DNA of 62,956 nt, counting the filler. It is 6 parts of 6 records of this genome, joined end to end, with 100 filler letters (N's around TTAATTAATTAA, not from the genome) between each part and the next. Parts side by side here need not be neighbours in the genome. Positions count along the whole stretch, not along the records: positions 57,585 to 62,956 come from SRR20825006_2652; 5 more parts are not named here. One strand, 5' to 3'. The notes beneath the pieces are model-generated. The model ran no database searches. It saw only the letters and a list, made by a program, of their open reading frames with translations, and was not told the origin of the DNA. How positions within the stretch are numbered: position 1 is the stretch's first letter; every line of letters begins with the position of its first letter. The position numbers were made by a program, and so were the translations under genes. This document shows positions 15,944 through 62,956 of the stretch, in pieces.

Positions 15944-16142
15944 GCTGTACCCCTGCTACTCAAACCCGCGCACGCGCGAGCTTATCCAACATCTGCCCCG
16001 CTTGATGGTAGCTCAGATATCACGCAAATCAAAAAAGTTAATGTATTTGGCTTATATGCCGTTGTCGGCAATCGCTCTTGAAAACACAATAAGCAAGCTA
16101 TATTCAGAAGATGGCTTCTGCGAGATGAAGCCTATTTAAGCT

Positions 16143-16290
16143 TGTACTCAGGGCAGGGTGAAATTCCCGACCGGCGGTATTTTCCAGAGTTTTGGAAACA
16201 GCCCGCGAGCGCCTATCCTGAAAGCCAGGATAGGGACAGCAGATCCGGTGAGAAACCGGAGCCGACGGTACAGTCCGGATGAGAGAGTGG
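16143..16290 (+). ncRNA. FMN riboswitch (RFN element)
   Basis: TCAGGGCAGGGTGAAATTCCCGACCGGCGGT...AGCCCGCGAGCG...GATCCGGTGAGAAACCGGAGCCGACGGTACAGTCCGGATGAGAGAG upstream of ribB. Confidence 0.95.
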
Positions 16291-16415
16291 AAGCAGCAAA
16301 CCCGCCTCAAAGTCATGAGGTGGCTTGCTCATGTCTGTGGTGGTGCAATTAGTTGGCCCGCCATGGTTCTCTATCAACGCCCTGATTCCTGCTGTTTCAA
16401 AAATGGAGACACACA

Positions 16416-25841: not shown

Positions 25842-25941
25842 NNNNNNNNNNNNNNNNNNNNNNNNNNNNNNNNNNNNNNNNNNNNTTAATTAATTAANNN
25901 NNNNNNNNNNNNNNNNNNNNNNNNNNNNNNNNNNNNNNNNN
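25842..25941. other. Artificial contig spacer
   Basis: N44-TTAATTAATTAA-N44 (stops in all six frames). Confidence 0.99.
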
Positions 25942-26137
25942 CATGCGCCTGCTGCCGATCATCGACCATATCCAGATCGCCGACAGGCCGGGCCGGCATG
26001 AGCCGGGCAGCGGCACCATCGATTTTCCGTCCGTGTTCACGGCCATCCGTTCGAGCGGTTACCCGGGTTGGGTGGGGGCGGAATACCTGCCGGCCGCCGG
26101 GACCAGCATGGGGCTTGGCTGGCGCGAGCGCGCCTGA
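25942..26137 (+). CDS. Hydroxypyruvate isomerase family, C-terminal fragment
   Basis: HIQIADRPGRHEPGSGTIDF, GYPGWVGAEY. Confidence 0.85.
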
Positions 26138-33500: not shown

Positions 33501-33686
33501 TTTCGGACCGATAACGGTGGTACCTCACCGAGCAAAAGCACACTCTTTACGCCCTCGTCGATCCTGTTTCGTCCCCATTGGCTCCTCCCCGCAAGGAGAG
33601 GAGATGGTGGAGACGCCGGGTACTGCCCCCGGGTCCGATGGGTTTATTACAATGACAGTTTATCGCCATAGCCCTTGCGGGCACCC
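33501..33686 (-). ncRNA. ssrA: Circularly permuted tmRNA gene (partial; tag-coding part lost in gap)
   Basis: Minus strand: ...CGGACCCGGGGGCAGTACCCGGCGTCTCCACCA (ends 33605), short intervening hairpin, then GGGGACGAAACAGGATCGAC (starts 33576); alphaproteobacterial permuted layout. Confidence 0.9.
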
Positions 33687-42405: not shown

Positions 42406-42505
42406 NNNNNNNNNNNNNNNNNNNNNNNNNNNNNNNNNNNNNNNNNNNNTTAATTAATTAANNNNNNNNNNNNNNNNNNNNNNNNNNNNNNNNNNNNNNN
42501 NNNNN
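42406..42505. other. Artificial contig spacer
   Basis: N44-TTAATTAATTAA-N44; composition switches from GC-rich to AT-rich. Confidence 0.99.
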
Positions 42506-42524
42506 GACAAGCTCAGTTTGACAA
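42506..42524. repeat. Remnant of REP-like element at contig start
   Basis: GACAAGCTCAGTTTGAC resembles (TTC)GACAAGCTCAG..TGAC REP arms. Confidence 0.45.
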
Positions 42525-52801: not shown

Positions 52802-54286
52802 TTACAACAAATTATATTCAAATTTAGGATATCCACGCTCTCCACTTTCACTTAACAAAGCAGTAAAACGGATTTTATAATAATTTCCATCGGGGTCTTT
52901 GAGAACATAATATCTATCATTCTTTGCTACAGGCGTTGATGAAGAAGGTCCTGTTGTAGATCTCCATCCACTTCCTATAATATTCTTTTTATCAAATACT
53001 AATGAGTCTTCTATTACATCGCTCATCGTAAAATCTTCATAAGACTTTATTCCATCTTCTATCACTACTTCATATACCCCTGTCCCACCTAAAGTATTGT
53101 GTAAAACAAAATCTGAATAAGTAGTTCCAATTTCAGTTGCAAAAACTCCTGAAAAATTAAGATCCCATTCTGCTTTTGCTGGTTCTACAGATAATGCTTT
53201 ATTATTTGTCAAACTAAAAGCAGTACTGTTATATTGCGGAGTTTTACTTATTAACACCTCAGAATAATCCGTAGCATCTAAAGGCGCATATTTCAACTTG
53301 TAACTATCCCCTTCCATTGTAACTCTTATTTTGTACCACCCTCTATCTACAGACCCAGTATTTATCTTTCCTGGTTCTGCGGGTGTATCTTCAATTTCAG
53401 TTCCCATATAAACCAAATAAACTTTGTTCTCTTCATCATTTACAGCAATTTCGGATATTGCAGTTCCCTCTAATTCTCCTGTAGATGTATCAACATATGG
53501 TTCATACATTGAATACGAAACTTTTACTCCTACTTTATATTCTTCAACTGAATTTACGGTTACCTCTTTAAAAGATTGTGTAAATAAATCAAAACTATTT
53601 ATGACTAATGGTGGATCGAAAACTGTTGAGCTAGTTACCGCATTTATATCTGTAAACTGAGTTAATTCTGCTGCTGAAACTCTCAATGCAGGATTTAAAA
53701 ACACTCTATTTTCTGATCCAGAATAAAAAGCGAGCTCCCACGTATCTCTTTTAATTGGAGTCATTTTTTGAGAACTCAAATCAATAAATACTTGATTAGG
53801 ATATGTAGAACCTCCCCAATCTGGAGATAAAACCCCACCAAGAGCAGCGCTTTCTGTAAAACTAACCGCTAACGAAGTATTTCCTTGTATGCTACTTTCT
53901 GGATTTGAAATAGAAGCTAACTTAAAAGTAACCGACATTTCGGTTCCTTCAATTGGGTTTTGTAATTTATTAAGGGTAAAAGTCGCCGAATTACTCCCAG
54001 CGGTTACAGGAACTGTAATAGTACCCTCTTCCGATGCTGGATTGGTTGTAAAATGTGTGTCATATTCTGCATTTACCGTTGTGTAGGTAATTGTAGCCGT
54101 ACCGTTTTCTGCTGCGTTTCTAGAAAACACTAACTTAACTTCCTTTGTTTCTTCTTCCGTAGTTAAACTTACCGAAGGATTTTCGAAAGCTACTACAAAT
54201 TCTTGCGTAGTTTTAGTATCGTCATCACTACAGGATGCGAGTATAAATAAAACAAAGAGGTTTAAGATTAAAAACTTGTTTTTCAT
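52802..54286 (-). CDS. HmuY family lipoprotein with N-terminal Ig-like extension
   Basis: Lipobox LASC, WELAF, WDLNF, YYVLKDPDGNYYKIRF, GERGYPKFEY. Confidence 0.8.
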   Translation of the reverse strand: MKNKFLILNLFVLFILASCSDDDTKTTQEFVVAFENPSVSLTTEEETKEVKLVFSRNAAENGTATITYTTVNAEYDTHFTTNPASEEGTITVPVTAGSNSATFTLNKLQNPIEGTEMSVTFKLASISNPESSIQGNTSLAVSFTESAALGGVLSPDWGGSTYPNQVFIDLSSQKMTPIKRDTWELAFYSGSENRVFLNPALRVSAAELTQFTDINAVTSSTVFDPPLVINSFDLFTQSFKEVTVNSVEEYKVGVKVSYSMYEPYVDTSTGELEGTAISEIAVNDEENKVYLVYMGTEIEDTPAEPGKINTGSVDRGWYKIRVTMEGDSYKLKYAPLDATDYSEVLISKTPQYNSTAFSLTNNKALSVEPAKAEWDLNFSGVFATEIGTTYSDFVLHNTLGGTGVYEVVIEDGIKSYEDFTMSDVIEDSLVFDKKNIIGSGWRSTTGPSSSTPVAKNDRYYVLKDPDGNYYKIRFTALLSESGERGYPKFEYNLL

Positions 54287-54292
54287 GATTGT

Positions 54293-56413
54293 CTAGTTAA
54301 AATTTAAATTATATAATAGTTTTATAAAGTAGGATCTTCCGTACCCCAAGAGCACATTAGAGGGAGGTCCCGAATGCACCCCGCCACTCACAGATGTGCT
54401 GTTTACCCTAGTAACATCTAATAAATTTCTTGCACCAAGAGTTAGCTGAAGTTTGTTGTTGTAAAATGCCTTTCGTATCGACGCATCCCACCAACTATAC
54501 GCATCTTGTTTGCCTCTAATTAATATTGTTTCTCCATTTTCATCTTGATCTTGCAAAAACTGATATTCGGGTCCGTTGTGTTTAAAATATGTTGAAAAAG
54601 TGGTATTCCATTGAGGAACACTATAAGACAAACTTGCATTTAGTTGTAATGCCTTTAAATAATCGTCATCATAATTTCTCCCTTCTAAAACTTTAGAAAC
54701 TCCCGAGTAGGAAATTCCTAAATTCCCACTAATATTTTGATACATAAATCCATTAGAAAACGATACATTCCATGTTTTATATTTGTCAATATTAGTATAC
54801 TGATATGCTAAAGGAGAACTATTTACAATGATGAGTTCAATACGGTCGTCTACATCTATATATCCAACAGATAATTTGCTCCTTAAGCTGAAATTATTCT
54901 GAAACTCGAAGATTTTTTTAGCATGAATAAAAGCAGAAATTCCCTCTTCTGGTTTTAAGTCTTCATTACCTCGTACATCATGATTGGCATCTACGAAATA
55001 AGAATACAGCTCTGTAAAATTTGGCATTCTTGGCGCTGTACCTACAACCGCTCTAACCTCCATCTTATTTTTAAAAAGGTATTTAGAAGACAATTCTAAA
55101 GCGGTTTGCGTATCAAATTTGTTTGAAAAGAAAACCCGAGCTCCTGGTCGGAATGAAAGCCTACTATTTGGTACGTATTCTGCAGATGCAAACACATCAT
55201 AAGAGCCTATTTTTCTACGGATATTCTCTCCATCATAATCTCCAGAGATAGAAGAGGCATACCCTTCATTTTGACTAATCTCATAACCAACTTGAAAATC
55301 AAAGGCATTTTCATTTAAAAAATTACTAAACGTTCCTTTGGAATAGTATATGCTACGCGATTCGTATTCAAATTCTGCTATATCAAACTTTTCTTCTTCT
55401 AAAATTCTATAGTTATACGTTTCTGCATTTTTCTTTTGTTGCTGAAAAGAAAGCGAAACATTGTATAAAATTCCGCTATTAAAACTTCCGTTTGCATTTA
55501 AATGATGCATAAATCTTTGGGAAGTAAATATTTCGTCCGAAGAAATAGGATTTCGTGTTTGTGTGGAAGGGTTGTAATTTTCTCTTACTACGGAATCGTA
55601 ACGAGAAACTTTTTCATTAAAATATTCAAACTTGTAAAACATTTTCATGTTTTCAGCTTGATAGCTCAACATCCCTTTTGTGTTGTATTGCAATTTAGGA
55701 AGCCACTCATAGCCACGCTTTCCATCGTTATATTGATAACTTTCTCCCTGCTTATCTCCCCATAATCCTGCAAAATCGTTTCGTGTGGCAGTAATATTAG
55801 CATATAACTTTTCAGATATATTATTAGAAACACTTAACGATTGAATATGCCTTCCTTTATCAAACCACCCATACTCATCTCCAATGGTTTCTTCTTGTAA
55901 ATAGGGTCTTATTTGCCATTTGTAATTAGCCGATTTTTTGGTAATAATATTAATAACACCCGCAACGGCATCTGCTCCATATTGAACTCCCATGGCGCCC
56001 TCAACAATTTCAATCTGTTCAATATCATCTAAATTAATTTGCGTTAAATCGGTATTATTTCCAAAACCTTCATCGTTTACTAGCGGAATATTATCTACCA
56101 AAATTTTGACATATTGACCGTCTAAACCAAACATTTTTATACTTGATTTCCCAGTGGAAGCATTTGGAAGAATTGAAATATTTAAAGTCTGATTTAAAAC
56201 ATCTGCCAAATTGTTTCCTGCTTGACGATTTATGTCTGCTTGACTGATTACAGTAACTTCATAAACCGATTTTTTTACCGACTGCGGATTGTACTGTCCA
56301 GTAACTACTACTTCCTCCAAATCGTTTACTACTAAAGAATCCATTATTTGAACCTTTTGAGCAAAACCAAAGCTTACAGTTAAAAATAATATTAGGTATG
56401 TTAGTTGTTTCAT
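54293..56413 (-). CDS. TonB-dependent receptor, HmuR-like heme receptor
   Basis: EVVVTGQ, IEIVEGAMGV.YG..A..GVINIITK, PRMP...NH..GNEDLKPE (FRAP/His/NPNL-like); upstream of hmuY-like gene. Confidence 0.85.
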   Translation of the reverse strand: MKQLTYLILFLTVSFGFAQKVQIMDSLVVNDLEEVVVTGQYNPQSVKKSVYEVTVISQADINRQAGNNLADVLNQTLNISILPNASTGKSSIKMFGLDGQYVKILVDNIPLVNDEGFGNNTDLTQINLDDIEQIEIVEGAMGVQYGADAVAGVINIITKKSANYKWQIRPYLQEETIGDEYGWFDKGRHIQSLSVSNNISEKLYANITATRNDFAGLWGDKQGESYQYNDGKRGYEWLPKLQYNTKGMLSYQAENMKMFYKFEYFNEKVSRYDSVVRENYNPSTQTRNPISSDEIFTSQRFMHHLNANGSFNSGILYNVSLSFQQQKKNAETYNYRILEEEKFDIAEFEYESRSIYYSKGTFSNFLNENAFDFQVGYEISQNEGYASSISGDYDGENIRRKIGSYDVFASAEYVPNSRLSFRPGARVFFSNKFDTQTALELSSKYLFKNKMEVRAVVGTAPRMPNFTELYSYFVDANHDVRGNEDLKPEEGISAFIHAKKIFEFQNNFSLRSKLSVGYIDVDDRIELIIVNSSPLAYQYTNIDKYKTWNVSFSNGFMYQNISGNLGISYSGVSKVLEGRNYDDDYLKALQLNASLSYSVPQWNTTFSTYFKHNGPEYQFLQDQDENGETILIRGKQDAYSWWDASIRKAFYNNKLQLTLGARNLLDVTRVNSTSVSGGVHSGPPSNVLLGYGRSYFIKLLYNLNFN

Positions 56414-56477
56414 TATTTAGATTGATTCTGAATAATTTTATGACAAATATATAGTTATTTTTATTCAATCTAAATAA
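56413..56477. promoter_or_regulatory. Two oppositely oriented AT-rich dyad boxes (candidate Bacteroidota Fur boxes) flanking a TAnnTTTG promoter element
   Basis: TTATTTAGATTGATTCTGAATAA (56413-56435) and TTATTTTTATTCAATCTAAATAA (56455-56477); TATATTTG on minus strand at 56444-56451. Confidence 0.65.
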
Positions 56478-56525
56478 ATTTTATATTTTTGTTCCATCAG
56501 AAATGAAAAACTAATTATATCAACA

Positions 56526-57425
56526 ATGAAAAAATTATCAATTTTTATAGGCTTAACAATGGCGAGCCTTGCTGTAACAGCTCAAAAGCACGATAAAAGT
56601 GCGGATCAAAAAAACATTAAAGACATGTGTGGCTGTTATGAAGTACGTTTCAATTTTGCCGAAACATTTAACAACGCAAAAGATTCTACCTACCAAGCTT
56701 CCAAAGTAAAACAAGTAGGCGCTTTAGAATGGGTACAATTGGTAGAAGACAAACCCAATAAAATTGTAATGCAGCATTTATTAATTGCCAACGACACCAT
56801 GATTATTAAACATTGGAGGCAAGATTGGTTGTATGAAAACACCAATTTATATCAGTTTTATAAAGACAAAACATGGAAGTTTGAAAAATTGGCAAAAGAA
56901 GATGTAAAAGGGCAATGGACACAAAAAGTGTATCAAGTAGATGATAGTCCGCGTTATGAAGGCACCGCAAGTTGGGTACATGTTGACGGGAAAAATTATT
57001 GGGTAAACACCACCGATGCTCCTTTACCAAGAAGAGAACACACCGTTCGAGACGATTATAATGTTATGAAGCGTAGAAACATACATGCCATTACAGATTA
57101 CGGTTGGTTGCATGAACAGGATAATGATAAAATTATTAGAGACGATGAAGGAAATGATTTTGTATTAGCTCAAGAAAAAGGCTACGACACCTATACAAAA
57201 GTAGCTGATGAAAAATGTAAAGCAGCACAAGATTGGTGGAAAGAAAATGAAGCTTTCTGGAAAATTGTAAGAAATAAATGGCAAGACTTATTTGAGCAAA
57301 ACAAAGATATTGAGTTACAAAAAAGCGTTGACAACAAACCTTTATTTGCGCATTTATTTGCGATGCCTGCAAACAGTAGTAAAAAAGAAATTGAAGCAGT
57401 AATTGACAGCTTTATTGTGAAATAA
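56526..57425 (+). CDS. DUF6607-like exported protein
   Basis: Signal peptide; MCGCY, QHLL, IKHWRQDW, VYQVDDSPRY, PLPRR, GWLHEQDNDK; homolog of 11163-12245. Confidence 0.82.
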   Translation: MKKLSIFIGLTMASLAVTAQKHDKSADQKNIKDMCGCYEVRFNFAETFNNAKDSTYQASKVKQVGALEWVQLVEDKPNKIVMQHLLIANDTMIIKHWRQDWLYENTNLYQFYKDKTWKFEKLAKEDVKGQWTQKVYQVDDSPRYEGTASWVHVDGKNYWVNTTDAPLPRREHTVRDDYNVMKRRNIHAITDYGWLHEQDNDKIIRDDEGNDFVLAQEKGYDTYTKVADEKCKAAQDWWKENEAFWKIVRNKWQDLFEQNKDIELQKSVDNKPLFAHLFAMPANSSKKEIEAVIDSFIVK

Positions 57426-57731: not shown

Positions 57732-58037
57732 TCATTCTGGAATATCTACCCCATATTTATCTTCAAATTCCTTAAAAAGTACTTTTAAGGAATATTTTTC
57801 ATGCCTACAAATATTATATATAGTTGAGATGGGTATATTATATCCTTCTAAGGACTTTAATTTACTTATAGTTGAAGAAGATAGTCCTACCATATCGGAA
57901 TATTGATTTTGAGAGATACTTTTCCCCTCTTGATTCTTGGTAACCCTTAAAAATTTATCAGCAATAAAATTACATAAATGCTTGTTTATTAACGCATTTG
58001 TTTTATTTAGCTTTTTTTTATCATTTTTTATTGCCAT
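57732..58037 (-). CDS. Small XRE/Cro-like helix-turn-helix protein
   Basis: SQNQYSDMVGLSSSTISKLKS..GYNIPISTIYNIC. Confidence 0.75.
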   Translation of the reverse strand: MAIKNDKKKLNKTNALINKHLCNFIADKFLRVTKNQEGKSISQNQYSDMVGLSSSTISKLKSLEGYNIPISTIYNICRHEKYSLKVLFKEFEDKYGVDIPE

Positions 58038-58085
58038 TCATACTACTTCTATACTCAAATGAAATAAATAATCAAAAAATAACCG

Positions 58086-58099
58086 TTCGCTTTAGCGAA
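58086..58099. promoter_or_regulatory. Palindromic operator candidate upstream of HTH gene
   Basis: TTCGCT-TT-AGCGAA. Confidence 0.5.
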
Positions 58100-58138
58100 T
58101 GATTAAATTATTTTTATTATATTCGTTTTTGAATAACA

Positions 58139-58146
58139 TATATTTG
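58139..58146 (+). promoter_or_regulatory. Bacteroidota -7 promoter element
   Basis: TATATTTG matches TAnnTTTG, ~45 nt before the long hairpin. Confidence 0.55.
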
Positions 58147-58190
58147 CAATTCTTCAAATAGAAAAATATTAGAAGTAATTGCTTTGAATC

Positions 58191-58320
58191 TTGTATCGGA
58201 AAACTGGTAATTTTTAGACAACGAGATGATAAGTAAATTGGCTCACAACCCGGGTGTGGGCTCTCTTATCGTTGTCCGGTATACCAGTACCTCCGATACA
58301 ATAAGTAGAGTTTCACACCC
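58191..58320 (+). ncRNA. Putative structured RNA/leader with two alternative folds
   Basis: Nested helices TTGTATCGGA/TCCGATACAA, CTGGTA/TACCAG, GACAACGA/TCGTTGTC, GCTCAC/GTGGGC; 58252-58269 also pairs with 58301-58320. Confidence 0.65.
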
Positions 58321-58805
58321 AATTATTTTATACATAGAAACTATTACGCATTTTCATAGCATTTCTTCATCAATAGGTTTCTAGCATTGCATTTACAATG
58401 TTTTATATAATGAACCAACTAACTACCTCATTATGGTTTTGTTTATTGCCTTTAAACCTTTCATATGGTTTGAGGGTATCGGTCATGGATAGACTTTTTG
58501 TAAAGAAACCAAAAGGTCCTATTTAGACCATTTTTGTTACGGGATTGATGATATAAATTATTGATTTTGGCATACGATACACAGTTATCCCGTAATAATA
58601 CTCTTCACGAATCACGGAAACCACCGTGTAAACTATTAGCAAGCTTAGAACGAATTTTTAAGGTTTCGCTGGCAACCTGAACTATCATACTTTGGTATGA
58701 AATTCAAACAGTGAAACTAAAATGTTTAACTAATTTAAATTAAAGTATATAAGAAGAAACAGTCAAAAAATAGCATCAACAATAAATTAGTTTCAAACTA
58801 AAAAA

Positions 58806-58846
58806 AAAGGCTCTCCGCCATTGTGGAAAGTGATCGGAAAGCCTTT
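58806..58846 (+). promoter_or_regulatory. Stem-loop just upstream of susC
   Basis: AAAGGCTCTCCG...CGGAAAGCCTTT preceded by A-run. Confidence 0.5.
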
Positions 58847-58887
58847 GTATCAATTAAACGAAGTCTAACTAATAACATTTCAAAATT

Positions 58888-61800
58888 ATGCAAAAAAAGT
58901 GTGTAATAAGAGATAAGTGTATACTATTATTTACCCTGCTTATCTTTTCAATTGGAACGTATTCCCTATTTGGGAATACCAGGGGTATTAATTTATTTGA
59001 TTTAGCTGCATACCAACATCGGATTAAAGGAGTGGTCACTGATACTAATGGCATTCCTATTCAAGGTGTAAACGTAAAATTGCAAGACGCATCTCAGGGA
59101 ACGTTCACTAATGAAGATGGCATCTTTTATTTAGAGGCCAGTCCTTCCGATGTTTTGGTTGTCAGTTATATTGGTTTTAAAACCCTTGTAGTAAAAGTGG
59201 GAGATACCGAAGAACTTTCCTTGGTATTGGAAGAAGATGTTACCGATTTAGGTGCTGTTACGGTTAATGCTGGATATTACACGGTATCTGAAAAAGAACG
59301 TACGGGAAGTATTTCTAAAATCACTGCTGCAGCTATTGAGGAACAACCCGTCACTAATGTATTAGCTACCATGCAGGGACAGATGCCAGGAGTAAATATT
59401 TCCCAAACCACTGGAATGCCAGGGGGTGGATTTTCCATCCAGATACGAGGACAAAATAGTTTGCGATTGGATGCCAATGCCCCACTCTATGTTATTGATG
59501 GCGTTCCCTATGCCTCCGAAGGAATTGGATCTAACAGTACATCAGGTGTACTTGCTGGAAGCACGAGTCCACTAAACAGTATTAATCCTGATAACATTGC
59601 GAGTATCGAGGTATTAAAGGATGCTGATGCCACTGCTATTTATGGTTCTCGTGGAGCTAATGGTGTGGTGCTTATTACCACTAAAAAAGGAAAAGCTGGT
59701 AAAACCCAAATAGTAGCAAATTATTCCTATGGCTTAGGACAAGTTACCCGCTTCATTGATTTAATGGATACCACTGCGTACTTACAAATGCGAAGGGAAG
59801 CTTTTGCCAATGATGGAATTACCAATTATCCCTCCAATGCTTATGATGTAAATGGAACTTGGGATCAACATCGATATACGGATTGGCAAGAGGTTCTTAC
59901 AGGCGGTTCAGCAGCATATACCAATGCTGGAATCAGTATTTCAGGTGGAGGCTCACAAACCAATTTCTTCCTGAGCGGTAATTTTTTAAATCAAACTACA
60001 GTATTTCCTGGGGATTTTCGTTATCAAAAAGGAAATGTTCACTTGGGAATAAACCATACCTCTACTGATCAAAAGTTTTCAGTTTCTTTTTCAGGAACGT
60101 ATACTACTCAGGATAACAACCTGCCTTATACCGACCTTACATACATCTCTAGAACGCTCCCACCAAATGCCCCTGCGCTCTATAACTCCGATGAAAGCCT
60201 TAATTGGGAAAACGGAACCTTCAACAATCCTTTGAGCGCTTTTGAAGGGGAATTCAATGCAATCACCTATGATCTAGTTGCCAATAGTCTTATTTCCTAC
60301 AAACCTTTTAGAGGATTGGAACTTAGCTCCTCTTTTGGTTATACTAATTTACAACATAGGGAAAACAACTCTAATCCCTCTACGCTATACAACCCTGCCT
60401 TCGGAATAGGTCCTGACAATTCTGCAATTTTCCTAACTCAAACTAATAGAGATTCATGGATTATTGAGCCTCGGCTACGTTATCAAACCAAACTAGGGAC
60501 TCTGTCCATGGATTTTCTAACTGGCGCCACCTTTCAAAATCGAACAAATTACAATCTGGGACAACTTGCTATTGGGTTTCCCTCTAATAGTCTAATCCAT
60601 AATTTAGAAGCGGCATCCTCCATACAAGTGAACGGTTATGATAATGCTATGTATAGATACCAAGCTTTGTTTGGAAGAGTAAATCTAAATTTTAAAGGAC
60701 GCTATATTTTAAACCTAACAGGAAGACGTGATGGTTCCTCTCGTTTTGGACCCGGGAATCAATTTGCTAATTTCGGAGCTATTGGAGCTGCTTGGTTATT
60801 CGCTGAAGAAACTTGGGTTAAGAAAGGACTACCCTTTATCAGTTTCGGAAAACTTAGAGGAAGCTATGGAACTACTGGAAGTGACCAGATTGGTGATTAT
60901 CAATATTTAGATACCTACGCTACGTCGGGAGGACTCTATGGTGGAAATGTAGGACTTACCCCTACTCGTTTATTTAATTCCAACTTTGGATGGGAAACTA
61001 ATAAAAAACTGGAACTGGCACTAGAAACAGGGTTTCTAAAAGATAGGTTATTTTTTACCACTGCTTGGTATAAAAATCGATCTTCCAATCAATTGGTGGG
61101 CATTCCGCTACCCGCTACTACTGGCTTTACTTCTATTCAAGCGAATTTAAATGCCACTGTAGAAAATCAGGGGTGGGAATTTACACTTCGAAGCGTCAAC
61201 CTCAACCATAAGGATTGGAACTGGACGACCAATATGAACCTGACCATCCCAGAAAACAAACTATTATCCTTCCCCGACTTAGAAGGCTCTACTTATCGAA
61301 ATCGCCTCGTTATTGGCAAGGCTTTAAATATCGACAAAGTATATCACTACACAGGTCTTAATAGTGATACTGGAGTTTACGAATTCGAGGATTACAATAA
61401 CGATGGTGCCATTGCATCTCCAGATGACAGGCAATTCATTCAGGACTTAAATCCCAAATTCTTTGGAGGGATTCAAAATCAAATCTCCTATAAACAGTTC
61501 AAGTTTGACTTTTTATTTCAATTTGTTAAAAAAGAGGCACCAAATGCATTTGCTTCTTTTGGTATGCCCGGACTAATGAGCAATCAACCATTAGAAGTAT
61601 CTGATAGGTGGCAAAATCCAAATACATTAGGCACCTATCAGCGTTACTCCACTGGTGTTGATACAGAAATACGTAATGGTTACCTAAACTATCAACAGAG
61701 TAATGCAGCTATTTCTGATGCCTCTTTCATCAGGCTTAAAAACTTATCCATCTCTTATACGATTCCGAAGAAATGGTTCTATGATATAGAGTGCCGCATT

Positions 61801-61923
61801 TTTATGCAAGGGCAAAACTTACTCACCTTTACGCCCTATAAAGGAGGGGATCCAGAGTTTGAGTTTTCAGGACGTTTACCACCCTTAAAACTTTTCACCA
61901 CTGGCATTGAACTACGCTTTTAA
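58888..61923 (+). CDS. SusC/RagA family TonB-linked outer membrane protein
   Basis: IQIRGQNS, PLYVIDGVP, IEVLKDADATAIYGSRGANGVVLITTK, RRDGSSRFG, WETNKK. Confidence 0.96.
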   Translation: MQKKCVIRDKCILLFTLLIFSIGTYSLFGNTRGINLFDLAAYQHRIKGVVTDTNGIPIQGVNVKLQDASQGTFTNEDGIFYLEASPSDVLVVSYIGFKTLVVKVGDTEELSLVLEEDVTDLGAVTVNAGYYTVSEKERTGSISKITAAAIEEQPVTNVLATMQGQMPGVNISQTTGMPGGGFSIQIRGQNSLRLDANAPLYVIDGVPYASEGIGSNSTSGVLAGSTSPLNSINPDNIASIEVLKDADATAIYGSRGANGVVLITTKKGKAGKTQIVANYSYGLGQVTRFIDLMDTTAYLQMRREAFANDGITNYPSNAYDVNGTWDQHRYTDWQEVLTGGSAAYTNAGISISGGGSQTNFFLSGNFLNQTTVFPGDFRYQKGNVHLGINHTSTDQKFSVSFSGTYTTQDNNLPYTDLTYISRTLPPNAPALYNSDESLNWENGTFNNPLSAFEGEFNAITYDLVANSLISYKPFRGLELSSSFGYTNLQHRENNSNPSTLYNPAFGIGPDNSAIFLTQTNRDSWIIEPRLRYQTKLGTLSMDFLTGATFQNRTNYNLGQLAIGFPSNSLIHNLEAASSIQVNGYDNAMYRYQALFGRVNLNFKGRYILNLTGRRDGSSRFGPGNQFANFGAIGAAWLFAEETWVKKGLPFISFGKLRGSYGTTGSDQIGDYQYLDTYATSGGLYGGNVGLTPTRLFNSNFGWETNKKLELALETGFLKDRLFFTTAWYKNRSSNQLVGIPLPATTGFTSIQANLNATVENQGWEFTLRSVNLNHKDWNWTTNMNLTIPENKLLSFPDLEGSTYRNRLVIGKALNIDKVYHYTGLNSDTGVYEFEDYNNDGAIASPDDRQFIQDLNPKFFGGIQNQISYKQFKFDFLFQFVKKEAPNAFASFGMPGLMSNQPLEVSDRWQNPNTLGTYQRYSTGVDTEIRNGYLNYQQSNAAISDASFIRLKNLSISYTIPKKWFYDIECRIFMQGQNLLTFTPYKGGDPEFEFSGRLPPLKLFTTGIELRF

Positions 61924-61941: not shown

Positions 61942-62956
61942 ATGAAAATACATAAGAATATCATCTATAACATTATCACACCGATCAGTTTGTTGATTTT
62001 CTGTGCTGGTTGCGAATCTTTTGTAGAAATTCCACTACCTGATACGGAACTCAATACCTCCTTTGTTTTTGAGGATGTTGCAACAGCTGAGGCTGCCATA
62101 ACCGCAATCTATGCATCACTAAGAGATGAAGGACTTTTGACTGGAAAAGTTTCTGGAATATCACATCAATTAGGAGTCTACAGTGATGAACTTACTTATT
62201 ATGGTCCTTCAGAAAATCTGAGCTATCAATTTTATTTAAACAATCTTTCCGCTTCAGATACTCGAATGGAATCCCTGTGGAATTATAGCTACGAGCAGTT
62301 ATATGCAGCCAACTCTGCGTTGGAGGGCATTAGACAGAGTAGCGCATTAAGCGAAGAACAAAGAATTTTCCTCACGGGAGAAGCGCTATTTCTAAGAGGA
62401 CTTATTCATTTTTATTTGGTGAACCTCTATGGTGACATTCCCTATGCAGACAGTACCGATTATAACCAAAATAGCACATCAGCTAGAATGGAAAGCACTA
62501 CCGTTTATCAATATATCATAGAGGATTTACAAACTGCGGTGAAACAATTACCCACAGCCTACCACTCTCCTGATCGGGTACGTCCAAACCGAGCTGCAGC
62601 ACAGTCACTTCTTGCAAGAGTGTACTTATTCCAAGGCGACTGGCAGAACGCTTCTAATATGGCATCAGCAGTTTTAAATCAAACAGACCGCTACCTTTTA
62701 GAAAGTCCAGCACTCACCTTCTTAAAAGGAAGTACATCCACCATTTGGCAATTGAGTCCTTCCCAGGTGGGATACAACACCCATGAAGCCAGCACCTTTA
62801 TCTTTACAGCTGGTCCTCCCCCACAATCTGCATTGAGTGAGGACTTAGTAGCTGCCTTTTCCAATGAAGACTTAAGAAAGGATGCATGGATTCATTCTAT
62901 TCATGACGCATCAGAAACGTGGTACATGCTGGAAATTCTTGCCAAACTGACCCATG
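61942..62956 (+). CDS. SusD/RagB family lipoprotein (3' truncated by window end)
   Basis: ATG 61942: MKIHKNIIYNIITPISLLIFCAGCESFVEI..., GEALFLRG...LVNLYGDIP, AAQSLLARVYL; open to window end, absent from ORF track. Confidence 0.92.
   Translation, partial: MKIHKNIIYNIITPISLLIFCAGCESFVEIPLPDTELNTSFVFEDVATAEAAITAIYASLRDEGLLTGKVSGISHQLGVYSDELTYYGPSENLSYQFYLNNLSASDTRMESLWNYSYEQLYAANSALEGIRQSSALSEEQRIFLTGEALFLRGLIHFYLVNLYGDIPYADSTDYNQNSTSARMESTTVYQYIIEDLQTAVKQLPTAYHSPDRVRPNRAAAQSLLARVYLFQGDWQNASNMASAVLNQTDRYLLESPALTFLKGSTSTIWQLSPSQVGYNTHEASTFIFTAGPPPQSALSEDLVAAFSNEDLRKDAWIHSIHDASETWYMLEILAKLTH

Follow-up and report, generated by a model that had tools for sequence, protein, structure and literature searches.

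The window analysed here is a stretch of DNA of 62,956 nucleotides in which an 850-nt intergenic region (58038-58887) separates a small divergent helix-turn-helix (HTH) gene, hth, from a susC/susD pair (susCD). Comparison of this region with its homologues indicates that it encodes a conserved RNA element on the + strand with two mutually exclusive folds, each of which is maintained by compensatory changes. One of these is a five-helix rod, and the other ends in a predicted intrinsic terminator. The ~190-nt locus (roughly 58130/58150 to 58333, + strand) is very likely a member of the 'hth-associated ncRNA' (non-coding RNA) family of Hoffmann et al. (Nature 2026; PMC13472631, referred to throughout as far as its available text goes). 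We regard as probable the overall reading in which this family identity is combined with a two-state leader whose terminator is bypassed by RNA-guided transcription (RGT). The element as an entity has probably been published already, and it is the two-state architecture and the terminator-bypass geometry that appear to be new. No description of the fold was found in the literature, including Weinberg 2017 and Brewer 2021, in a search outside which lie supplements such as Table S7 of PMC9723704 (64 structured 5' regions). The word 'terminator' occurs once in the available text of PMC13472631, in the legend of a reporter construct.

The initial annotation of this region had described a rod-like fold in which one strand has two competing partners, and its helices are present in the window where it had placed them. 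TTGTATCGGA (58191-58200) pairs with TCCGATACAA (58292-58301), a match that was also recovered in a repeat scan; the inner 3' strand lies at 58252-58269 and the downstream segment complementary to it at 58301-58320; and TATATTTG, which fits TAnnTTTG, is found 45 nt before the rod at 58139-58146. The list of helices needs one correction, as GACAACGA/TCGTTGTC and GATAAG/CTTATC share two bases (TC, 58268-58269). The minimum free energy (MFE) fold of the + strand is the five-helix rod (state A, helices P1-P5, 58191-58301, the predicted antiterminator fold), with -41.9 kcal/mol and a z value of -3.6, and none of 200 shuffled sequences folded as well. The - strand gives a fold that is no less favourable (-46.8, z -4.6), and a single sequence therefore can give neither the strand nor the difference between an RNA and a DNA palindrome.

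Both folds were then examined for covariation on homologues, as the initial annotation had proposed, and covariation is present in each. In alignment A3, a MAFFT alignment of 22 sequences which was not fitted to any structure, pairing in the rod reaches 92.0%, and 18 of its 33 pairs carry double changes; for the competing pairing between the inner 3' strand and the downstream segment, the figures are 96.3% and 7 of 16. For both pairings, 0 of 500 shuffles equalled the real alignment in covariation score and percentage paired. Alignment A6 contains 63 sequences and was fitted to the rod, so that its figures for the rod are inflated: pairing stands at 96.0%, 29 of the 33 pairs show double changes, no shuffle out of 500 comes as high, and slid controls reach 35-47%. 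The alternative pairing was not modelled in it and is still 92.2% paired, 10 of its 16 pairs showing double changes. The claim of one strand with two competing partners thus holds across the 63 homologues. The terminator pair 109-174, which is unpaired in the rod, is AU in 29 sequences and UA in 14. Changes in the shared strand are matched in both of its partners: the window copy has the triplet A-T-A where two Myroides copies have T-A-T. Cells with G-U exceed those with A-C by 133 to 42 in the rod and by 143 to 24 in the alternative fold, an excess which argues for an RNA of the + strand.

The nature of the second fold is suggested by what follows it. In 61 of the 63 copies, at least 5 T are found in the 9 bases after the stem that the downstream segment forms with the middle strand, and the alternative pairing is therefore best explained as an intrinsic terminator. 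State B would thus consist of three helices, X, Y and Z, and a hairpin of 16-17 bp (58252-58269 with 58301-58320) followed by a U-run. In the window the U-rich tract (58321-58333) has 5 T in 9 and is weaker than in most copies. Helix X (58188-58227) joins the 5' tail (58188-58193) to CGAGAT (58222-58227) and excludes the base of P1 and the end of P3. Hairpin Y (58199-58215; AAAA at 58200-58203 with TTTT at 58211-58214) holds the 5' strand of P2 in its loop, and hairpin Z (58278-58291; GGTA at 58278-58281 with TACC at 58288-58291) holds the 3' strand of P2. All three lie on the + strand and are recovered by energy alone when MFE folding is constrained to the terminator. Helices X and Y together are 87.8% paired with double changes in 9 of 11 pairs. 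In helix X, pair 7-47 is CG in 30, UA in 17 and UG in 4 sequences and pair 6-48 is UA in 51 and CG in 5; hairpin Y by itself is 89.3% paired, and 3 of its 5 pairs show double changes. Evidence for hairpin Z is weak: it is 91.9% paired with 8 double-change cells, and its pair count does not rise above that of shuffles (202 of 500). Of the two states, the rod is predicted to be more stable, by a median of 7.4 kcal/mol, and the window copy gives -41.1 for the rod and -37.7 for the terminator.

The initial annotation had seen in the competing partners the logic of riboswitches and attenuators. The attenuator part of this stands, both folds being conserved, though it had missed that the downstream partner is the 3' arm of a terminator placed before a U-run; stem, U-run and a mutually exclusive alternative pairing are all found here, as in attenuators with an intrinsic terminator. 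A metabolite-sensing riboswitch finds no support: only 2 columns are at least 90% conserved and unpaired in both folds, and the sequences give no sign of a ligand pocket. The expectation that no known family would match was borne out, since Rfam has no match for the window region at gathering threshold or at E up to 10, nor for 14 homologous loci at E up to 0.1. This includes Flavo-1. The T-box has a conserved UGGN which pairs with the 3' end of tRNA. A similar sensing of tRNA 3' ends by the UGGU of P2 was considered and rejected, as UGG varies (UGC, CGC, UGA, CCC) with compensating changes in its partner, and no Rfam match was obtained. A leader peptide was rejected as well, because the ATG at 58226 is not conserved and insertions and deletions do not come in threes.

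A further hairpin, P0 (GCAA..CTTCA/TGAAG..TTGC, 58146-58182, + strand), with an A/U-rich loop, was obtained from RNAalifold pairs on alignment A2, in which GC-to-AU double changes are seen at 2-3 of its positions; whether its outer pairs are included in the RNA depends on the start site. Two other pairings were dropped. Inspection of A2 by eye found no compensating changes for a pairing of the 5' strand of P0 with GAATC, and helix X as a pseudoknot coexisting with the rod was judged sterically unlikely on general grounds.

Homologous regions are found in several genera. In blastn searches, the first ~340 nt of the intergenic region are 64-89% identical to regions upstream of susC homologues in Flavobacterium, Chryseobacterium, Myroides, Arenibacter and Pustulibacterium. 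The nearest named genome, reached through a SusC protein search, is that of Galbibacter orientalis (scaffold_2, L069), with 99% identity over the intergenic region and 100% over the rod. A covariance model (R1) built from 22 homologous sequences places the element upstream of 26 of 42 susC-homologue loci. By this model 5 named genomes contain 17 copies, with as many as 7 in one genome; among 151 sampled Flavobacteriales genomes it detects 80 copies in 33, with as many as 8 in one, and among 151 sampled Bacteroidota genomes it detects the element in 22. It also scores 110.5 bits on a mobilizable plasmid of Rhizosphaericola (Chitinophagales). This plasmid copy (L142; NZ_CP044017.1, 15038-15184) lies upstream of genes for a 187-aa hypothetical protein and a metallophosphoesterase, and in its terminator the central CUCA/UGAG pairs are replaced by UUCC/GGAA. 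In one genome (G228) two copies stand on the same strand 8.4 kb apart (L125, 1001-1150 and 9383-9532). In G. orientalis scaffold_2, one copy of the element is separated from its susC/susD pair by an inserted IS1595-family transposase gene (L074/L119).

The element behaves as if linked in cis to what lies downstream of it. The longest open reading frame (ORF) within 1 kb downstream is co-oriented with the element in 43 of 48 loci, and 2 of the 5 exceptions are shadows of a conserved + strand ORF. Upstream ORFs are co-oriented in 26 of 47 loci and not in the other 21. The downstream ORF starts 13-100 nt after the element in 14 of the 43 co-oriented loci, and the distance to the start codon of susC is 300-850 nt. 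A susC gene is present within 1.5 kb downstream in 23 of 46 loci, often followed by susD and a gene for an S9 peptidase or a thioredoxin-like protein. Another downstream pair encodes a 271-aa extracytoplasmic function (ECF) sigma factor and then a 364-aa protein, which gives a match of E 1.4e-13, below cut-off, to the NCBIfam models of TnpB and Cas12f; such a sigma and TnpB/Cas12f-like pair follows the element in L143, L144, L155, L156 and L127-L129. Further downstream genes encode assorted small secreted proteins or lipoproteins without family matches.

A family of ~175-aa helical proteins is encoded directly downstream of the element in 6 of 46 loci, and follows 5 of the 8 copies in genome G301. 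Its loci are L079 (1853-2401), L083, L093, L096, L105, L145-L148 and L150-L152. Pfam and NCBIfam have no match for this family, and a protein atlas returns only 'hypothetical protein'. Its AlphaFold model is all-helical with a predicted local distance difference test (pLDDT) value of 79.5, and the model has no match in the PDB at E 0.001 or better. We considered the family as an RNA-binding partner of the element and set this aside, there being no Pfam, NCBIfam or PDB match to carry it. The family is absent from the target categories named in the available text of PMC13472631.

The connection to RGT comes from the layout of the locus and from the middle strand. Hoffmann et al. report that a nuclease-dead Cas12f (dCas12f), together with an ECF sigma factor (sigmaE) and a guide RNA (gRNA) of 85-105 nt, starts transcription ~46 bp past a 5'-G TAM (target-adjacent motif; PMC13472631); the same 46-bp rule is given in the accessible part of 10.1101/2025.06.10.658880. 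The native targets described in the former lie in large intergenic regions that precede susCD, two-component genes and rpoE-dcas12f itself. Each target is overlapped on the same strand by the abundant 'hth-associated ncRNA', whose role and promoter elements 'remain unknown' according to that text. It further contrasts the abundant ncRNA with the low expression of rpoE-dcas12f, and a negative role is guessed there. The arrangement of hth, RNA and susCD is category I of that classification (PMC13472631, available text), and the layout of our window fits it.

The middle strand (58252-58269, + strand), which has a partner in each of the two folds, is a candidate protospacer with its 5'-G TAM at 58253/58254. 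Directly after the dcas12f-like genes, a conserved scaffold ends in a guide beginning with GGCGTGGG. Such guides, of the form GGCGTGGG(C/T)T..., were found in 9 loci and have the same sequence as the middle strand. Within genomes, guide and middle strand are identical at 10-13 of 16 positions among the 16 comparisons listed, and the G before the guide-matching site occurs as GG in 54 of 63 copies. Comparison by hand of the window copy with the guides of the two gRNAs of G. orientalis gives 11 of 16 identities and a C-to-T difference at the first guide position. The G. orientalis guide has a mismatch at position 11 to its own elements, also by hand; native mismatches at guide positions 11-12 are reported in the accessible part of 10.1101/2025.06.10.658880. 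It is this guide match of the doubly paired strand, together with the hth/RNA/susCD or rpoE-dcas12f context, which points to the 'hth-associated ncRNA' identity. The initial reading of the region as an unannotated cis-regulatory element or ncRNA is therefore upheld in part: covariation supports a conserved structured RNA locus, but the element is not wholly undescribed, since it fits the family outlined in PMC13472631.

When the G preceding the guide match is taken as the TAM, the position TAM+46 falls in the last 7 nt of the 3' strand of P1 or on the first nucleotide of the terminator 3' arm in all 63 copies examined (columns 159-167). In the window this position is 58300, and the published rule combined with the alignment geometry predicts a dCas12f-sigmaE start site at 58298-58302 on the + strand (TAM+45 to 48). 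The terminator 5' arm ends at TAM+15 to 20, whereas the 3' arm (58301-58320, + strand), which is supported by covariation and is complementary to the seed of the gRNA guide, lies at or beyond the start. The guide matches the strand common to both folds, and the predicted start lies between the two arms of the terminator in every copy examined. Because of this position, an RGT transcript would have the 3' arm only and could not form the terminator, and RNA-guided transcripts would be expected to escape it. Transcripts from the upstream TATATTTG box, conserved in alignment A7, would carry both arms.

By our searches the element is found more widely than dCas12f. A dCas12f-like gene was detected in 8 of the 151 Flavobacteriales genomes, and all 8 are among the 33 carriers of the element. 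In 4 named element-bearing genomes (1-7 elements each), protein and family searches found no dCas12f, though distant clades may escape the two queries, and no gRNA-like site was found outside the elements. The element therefore looks older or wider than the detected RGT clade.

We lean slightly towards the following working mechanism. In transcripts from an upstream promoter of the housekeeping type, helices X and Y would fold first and the terminator next. Terminated transcripts would make up the abundant short ncRNA, and susCD would be kept off; transcripts which zip into the more stable rod would be read through. When dCas12f-gRNA binds the DNA of the middle strand, sigmaE-RNA polymerase would start ~46 bp after the TAM, past the terminator 5' arm and just before the 3' arm, and the resulting mRNA, free of a terminator, would lead to expression of susCD. 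The terminator would insulate the operon from transcription of the ncRNA and RGT would bypass it, with the rod serving as an escape route or as the form taken after release. As the element is present in genomes without detected dCas12f, it is probably a free-standing attenuator tag which was taken up by RGT later, and its wider distribution suggests that RGT exploited an existing regulatory tag.

A bolder form of this reading can be put forward only tentatively. The element might be an old, self-sufficient bistable attenuator that tags a Bacteroidota regulon, which in this case would include the susCD-peptidase loci, the ECF sigma operons, the 175-aa family and the small secreted proteins. The dCas12f-sigmaE systems might later have evolved a fixed guide against its most constrained strand and might initiate inside the terminator, so that RNA-guided transcripts escape it. 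The released RNA might refold to the rod, expose an anti-guide tail and feed back on dCas12f-gRNA, so that the choice of promoter and no ligand would set the switch.

If true, the favoured reading would account for the long intergenic regions in which targets lie, for an ncRNA that is abundant beside a silent operon, and for the way one fixed guide can serve many operons. It offers a testable model for the role and the promoter of an RNA whose function is left open in the available text of PMC13472631, and it comes with a family that is defined by a covariance model and absent from Rfam 15.

Several points weigh against this reading. The guide match lies ~65 nt inside the conserved structure, whereas the target is placed at the 5' end of the ncRNA in the text of PMC13472631 available to us, and the covarying helices P1-P3 join sequence upstream of the guide match to sequence downstream of it. 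Either the ncRNA that was sequenced is a shorter or processed 3' part, or our identification is partly off. According to the same text, ncRNA and HTH are dispensable for activation in E. coli reporters, which is compatible with a bypass but lends it no support. The window copy itself differs from the guide at the first position, has a weak U-run and carries a degenerate upstream box. The rod is predicted to be more stable than the terminator, so that termination by default would hinge on folding kinetics. The homologues are also mutually related, and the counts of double changes overstate the number of independent events.

The alternative which survives best is that the element is a free-standing attenuator or riboswitch-like leader in which a small molecule, a protein or a physiological cue tips the RNA towards the rod (read-through) or the terminator, dCas12f not being required. 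It is a serious possibility, though not the likely one. The absence of a dCas12f-like gene by this query from 25 of the 33 element-bearing genomes speaks for it, and so do the 4 named genomes in which neither dCas12f nor a gRNA-like site accompanies the 1-7 copies. It is also favoured by the balance in energy between the two folds and by the co-orientation with diverse downstream genes at short distances, 13-100 nt in 14 of 43 loci. However, nearly all of the highly conserved columns are explained by pairing, which leaves no evident ligand pocket; no effector is known; and divergent dCas12f clades may have escaped the searches. This alternative is compatible with the favoured reading, in that RGT may be an add-on where it is present and attenuation perhaps the ancestral function.

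It is unlikely, in our view, that the element acts in trans, as a negative regulator or anti-guide sponge whose released ncRNA titrates dCas12f-gRNA much as an anti-sigma factor titrates its target. The middle strand has the sequence of the guide, and hence both arms that pair with it, 5' and 3', can also pair with the guide; when the RNA is in the rod state, its 3' arm would be a free tail, and the rod is the more stable form after release. An abundant ncRNA beside a lowly expressed rpoE-dcas12f, and the negative role guessed for it in the available text of PMC13472631, would also agree with a sponge. However, pairing of the RNA with a guide bound to dCas12f is only putative, and a sponge leaves unexplained both the presence of the element in genomes without dCas12f and its strict co-orientation. 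The available text of PMC13472631 mentions no effect of the ncRNA in the E. coli assays.

An improbable alternative is a family of stand-alone small RNA (sRNA) genes, each with its own promoter and terminator, which act like FopS/GibS on distant mRNAs and have no role in cis. Conserved promoter-like boxes, a terminator, multiple copies and the 300-850 nt that separate the element from susC start codons would suit such genes, and FopS provides a precedent for control of susC by an sRNA (PMC11697453, available part). On the other side, the downstream ORF is co-oriented in 43 of 48 loci, a covarying antiterminator fold would be unnecessary for a simple sRNA, the window has no second TAnnTTTG box between the element and susC, and Rfam gave no match even though the FopS model is deposited there according to the accessible part of PMC11697453. 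A repeat at the DNA level (the end of a miniature inverted-repeat transposable element, MITE, or a palindromic operator) with no RNA function is extremely improbable: the inverted repeat is long and multi-copy, its - strand folds as well as the + strand in a single sequence, and one copy lies beside an IS1595 transposase gene and one on a plasmid, but copies within a genome have diverged while their pairs are kept by compensatory and G-U changes (with G-U exceeding A-C), the orientation of promoter box and U-run is fixed, no near-identical dispersed copies were seen, and a pattern scan of viral contigs gave 0 matches, so that the MITE end named as a risk in the initial annotation is not borne out.

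The hth gene (57732-58037, - strand) was found by ORF scan and encodes a 101-aa protein of the Cro/C1-type HTH class, on the basis of a weak Pfam match (HTH_26, E 6.7e-4, 20.3 bits, under the 22-bit cut-off). Its product is 43% identical to that of the upstream ORF of Myroides locus L059, and HTH families are matched by 3 of 10 small divergent ORFs upstream of homologous elements. The HTH as a partner conserved by sequence was considered and rejected, a tblastn match being obtained in only 2 of 42 loci. These sparse matches are in line with the HTH diversification described in the available text of PMC13472631, where most such hth genes are also reported to have inverted repeats no more than 50 bp away. 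A perfect palindrome is present in the window at 58086-58099, ~49 bp from the start of hth and ~20 bp before the upstream promoter box. It was noted in the sequence and in a terminator-like scan, and homologues carry a palindrome of other sequence in the same place (alignment A7). It might be an HTH operator controlling both divergent promoters, for which it is a candidate, or a bidirectional hairpin.

Two promoter-like boxes follow on the + strand. The upstream box, of -7 type, occupies 58118-58125, in near-invariant columns of A7; it reads TATATTTG in at least 90% of 20 homologues and TATATTCG in the window, and is presumed from this conservation to act as a promoter. The second box (58139-58146), conserved in A2 and A7, abuts hairpin P0. 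TAnnTTTG is the promoter motif named in the initial annotation. The second box is its sole + strand occurrence in the 850-nt intergenic region, and over the whole window the motif is not enriched (38 matches against 36.9 expected). Downstream, susC (58888-61923, + strand) encodes a SusC/RagA-type TonB-linked transporter of 1011 aa (Pfam; NCBIfam TIGR04056, E 3.5e-219), and a susD-like gene (61942-62955, + strand; Pfam SusD-like_3, E 6.5e-30) is truncated by the end of the window. Within the long 5' untranslated region, 40 nt before the susC start codon, a hairpin with 12-bp arms follows an A-run (58806-58846) and resembles a terminator on the - strand.

Four sequencing runs were compared with the window and gave contigs only. 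In run X17, record 5 (window 58242-58282) is a 237-nt contig of a paralogue with a depth of 460, against 2.5-50 for the others. It starts near the apical hairpin, and though the run may be RNA or DNA, this is at most a hint of an abundant short RNA. The contigs of run X19 cover only part of hth.

Elsewhere in the window, the region before hth (52802-57425) contains an HmuY-like gene, a TonB-dependent receptor gene and a DUF6607 gene, and looks like a haem or iron uptake cluster. Runs of N at 25842-25942 and 42407-42506 surround a TTAATTAATTAA stop-codon linker. The three segments of the window that they join have G+C fractions of ~0.55, 0.60-0.70 and 0.33, with the element in segment 42507-62956, and judging from these differences they derive from different organisms. 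Two known RNAs are present in the two high-G+C segments and are unrelated to the element, namely a transfer-messenger RNA of the Alphaproteobacteria or permuted type (33501-33682, - strand, 167 bits) and a flavin mononucleotide (FMN) riboswitch (16140-16294, + strand, 113 bits).

Among known systems, the element is most similar to the 'hth-associated ncRNA' (PMC13472631, available text). Both have a small divergent hth gene as neighbour and occupy a large intergenic region upstream of susCD or rpoE-dcas12f, both lie on the same strand as a gRNA-matching site with a 5'-G TAM and overlap it, and both occur in several copies per genome in Flavobacteriales and other Bacteroidota. However, that text gives this RNA no structure, promoter or role and has the target at the 5' end of the ncRNA, while here a covarying structure with two exclusive folds reaches ~65-110 nt further upstream and the arms of its terminator straddle the predicted RGT start. 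The element is also found here in genomes without detectable dCas12f, and its identification rests on the descriptions in the text.

With the FopS/GibS sRNAs of Bacteroides the element has in common that it is a multi-copy Bacteroidota RNA tied to the control of susC-type operons. As described in the accessible part of PMC11697453, FopS consists of a single-stranded seed and a terminator hairpin, targets translation start regions in trans and is restricted to Bacteroidaceae. The present element, in contrast, is large, multi-helix and cis-linked, and has no sequence or Rfam match to it. The Flavo-1 RNA motif, which is mentioned in the part of PMC9723704 available to us, is likewise a structured multi-copy motif of Flavobacteria, and the function is not known for either.

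Leaders that switch between terminator and antiterminator, such as riboswitch platforms, T-boxes and protein-dependent attenuators, share with the element a strand with two partners, a GC-rich hairpin followed by a U-run, and a position upstream of the regulated genes and co-oriented with them. Here, however, the switching strand belongs to the apical portion of the rod rather than to its 3' edge, the 3' halves of P1-P3 fall within the terminator loop, and the alternative state has three helices of its own with no evident ligand pocket. Unlike in such leaders, a second promoter, which would be RNA-guided, appears to start inside the terminator.

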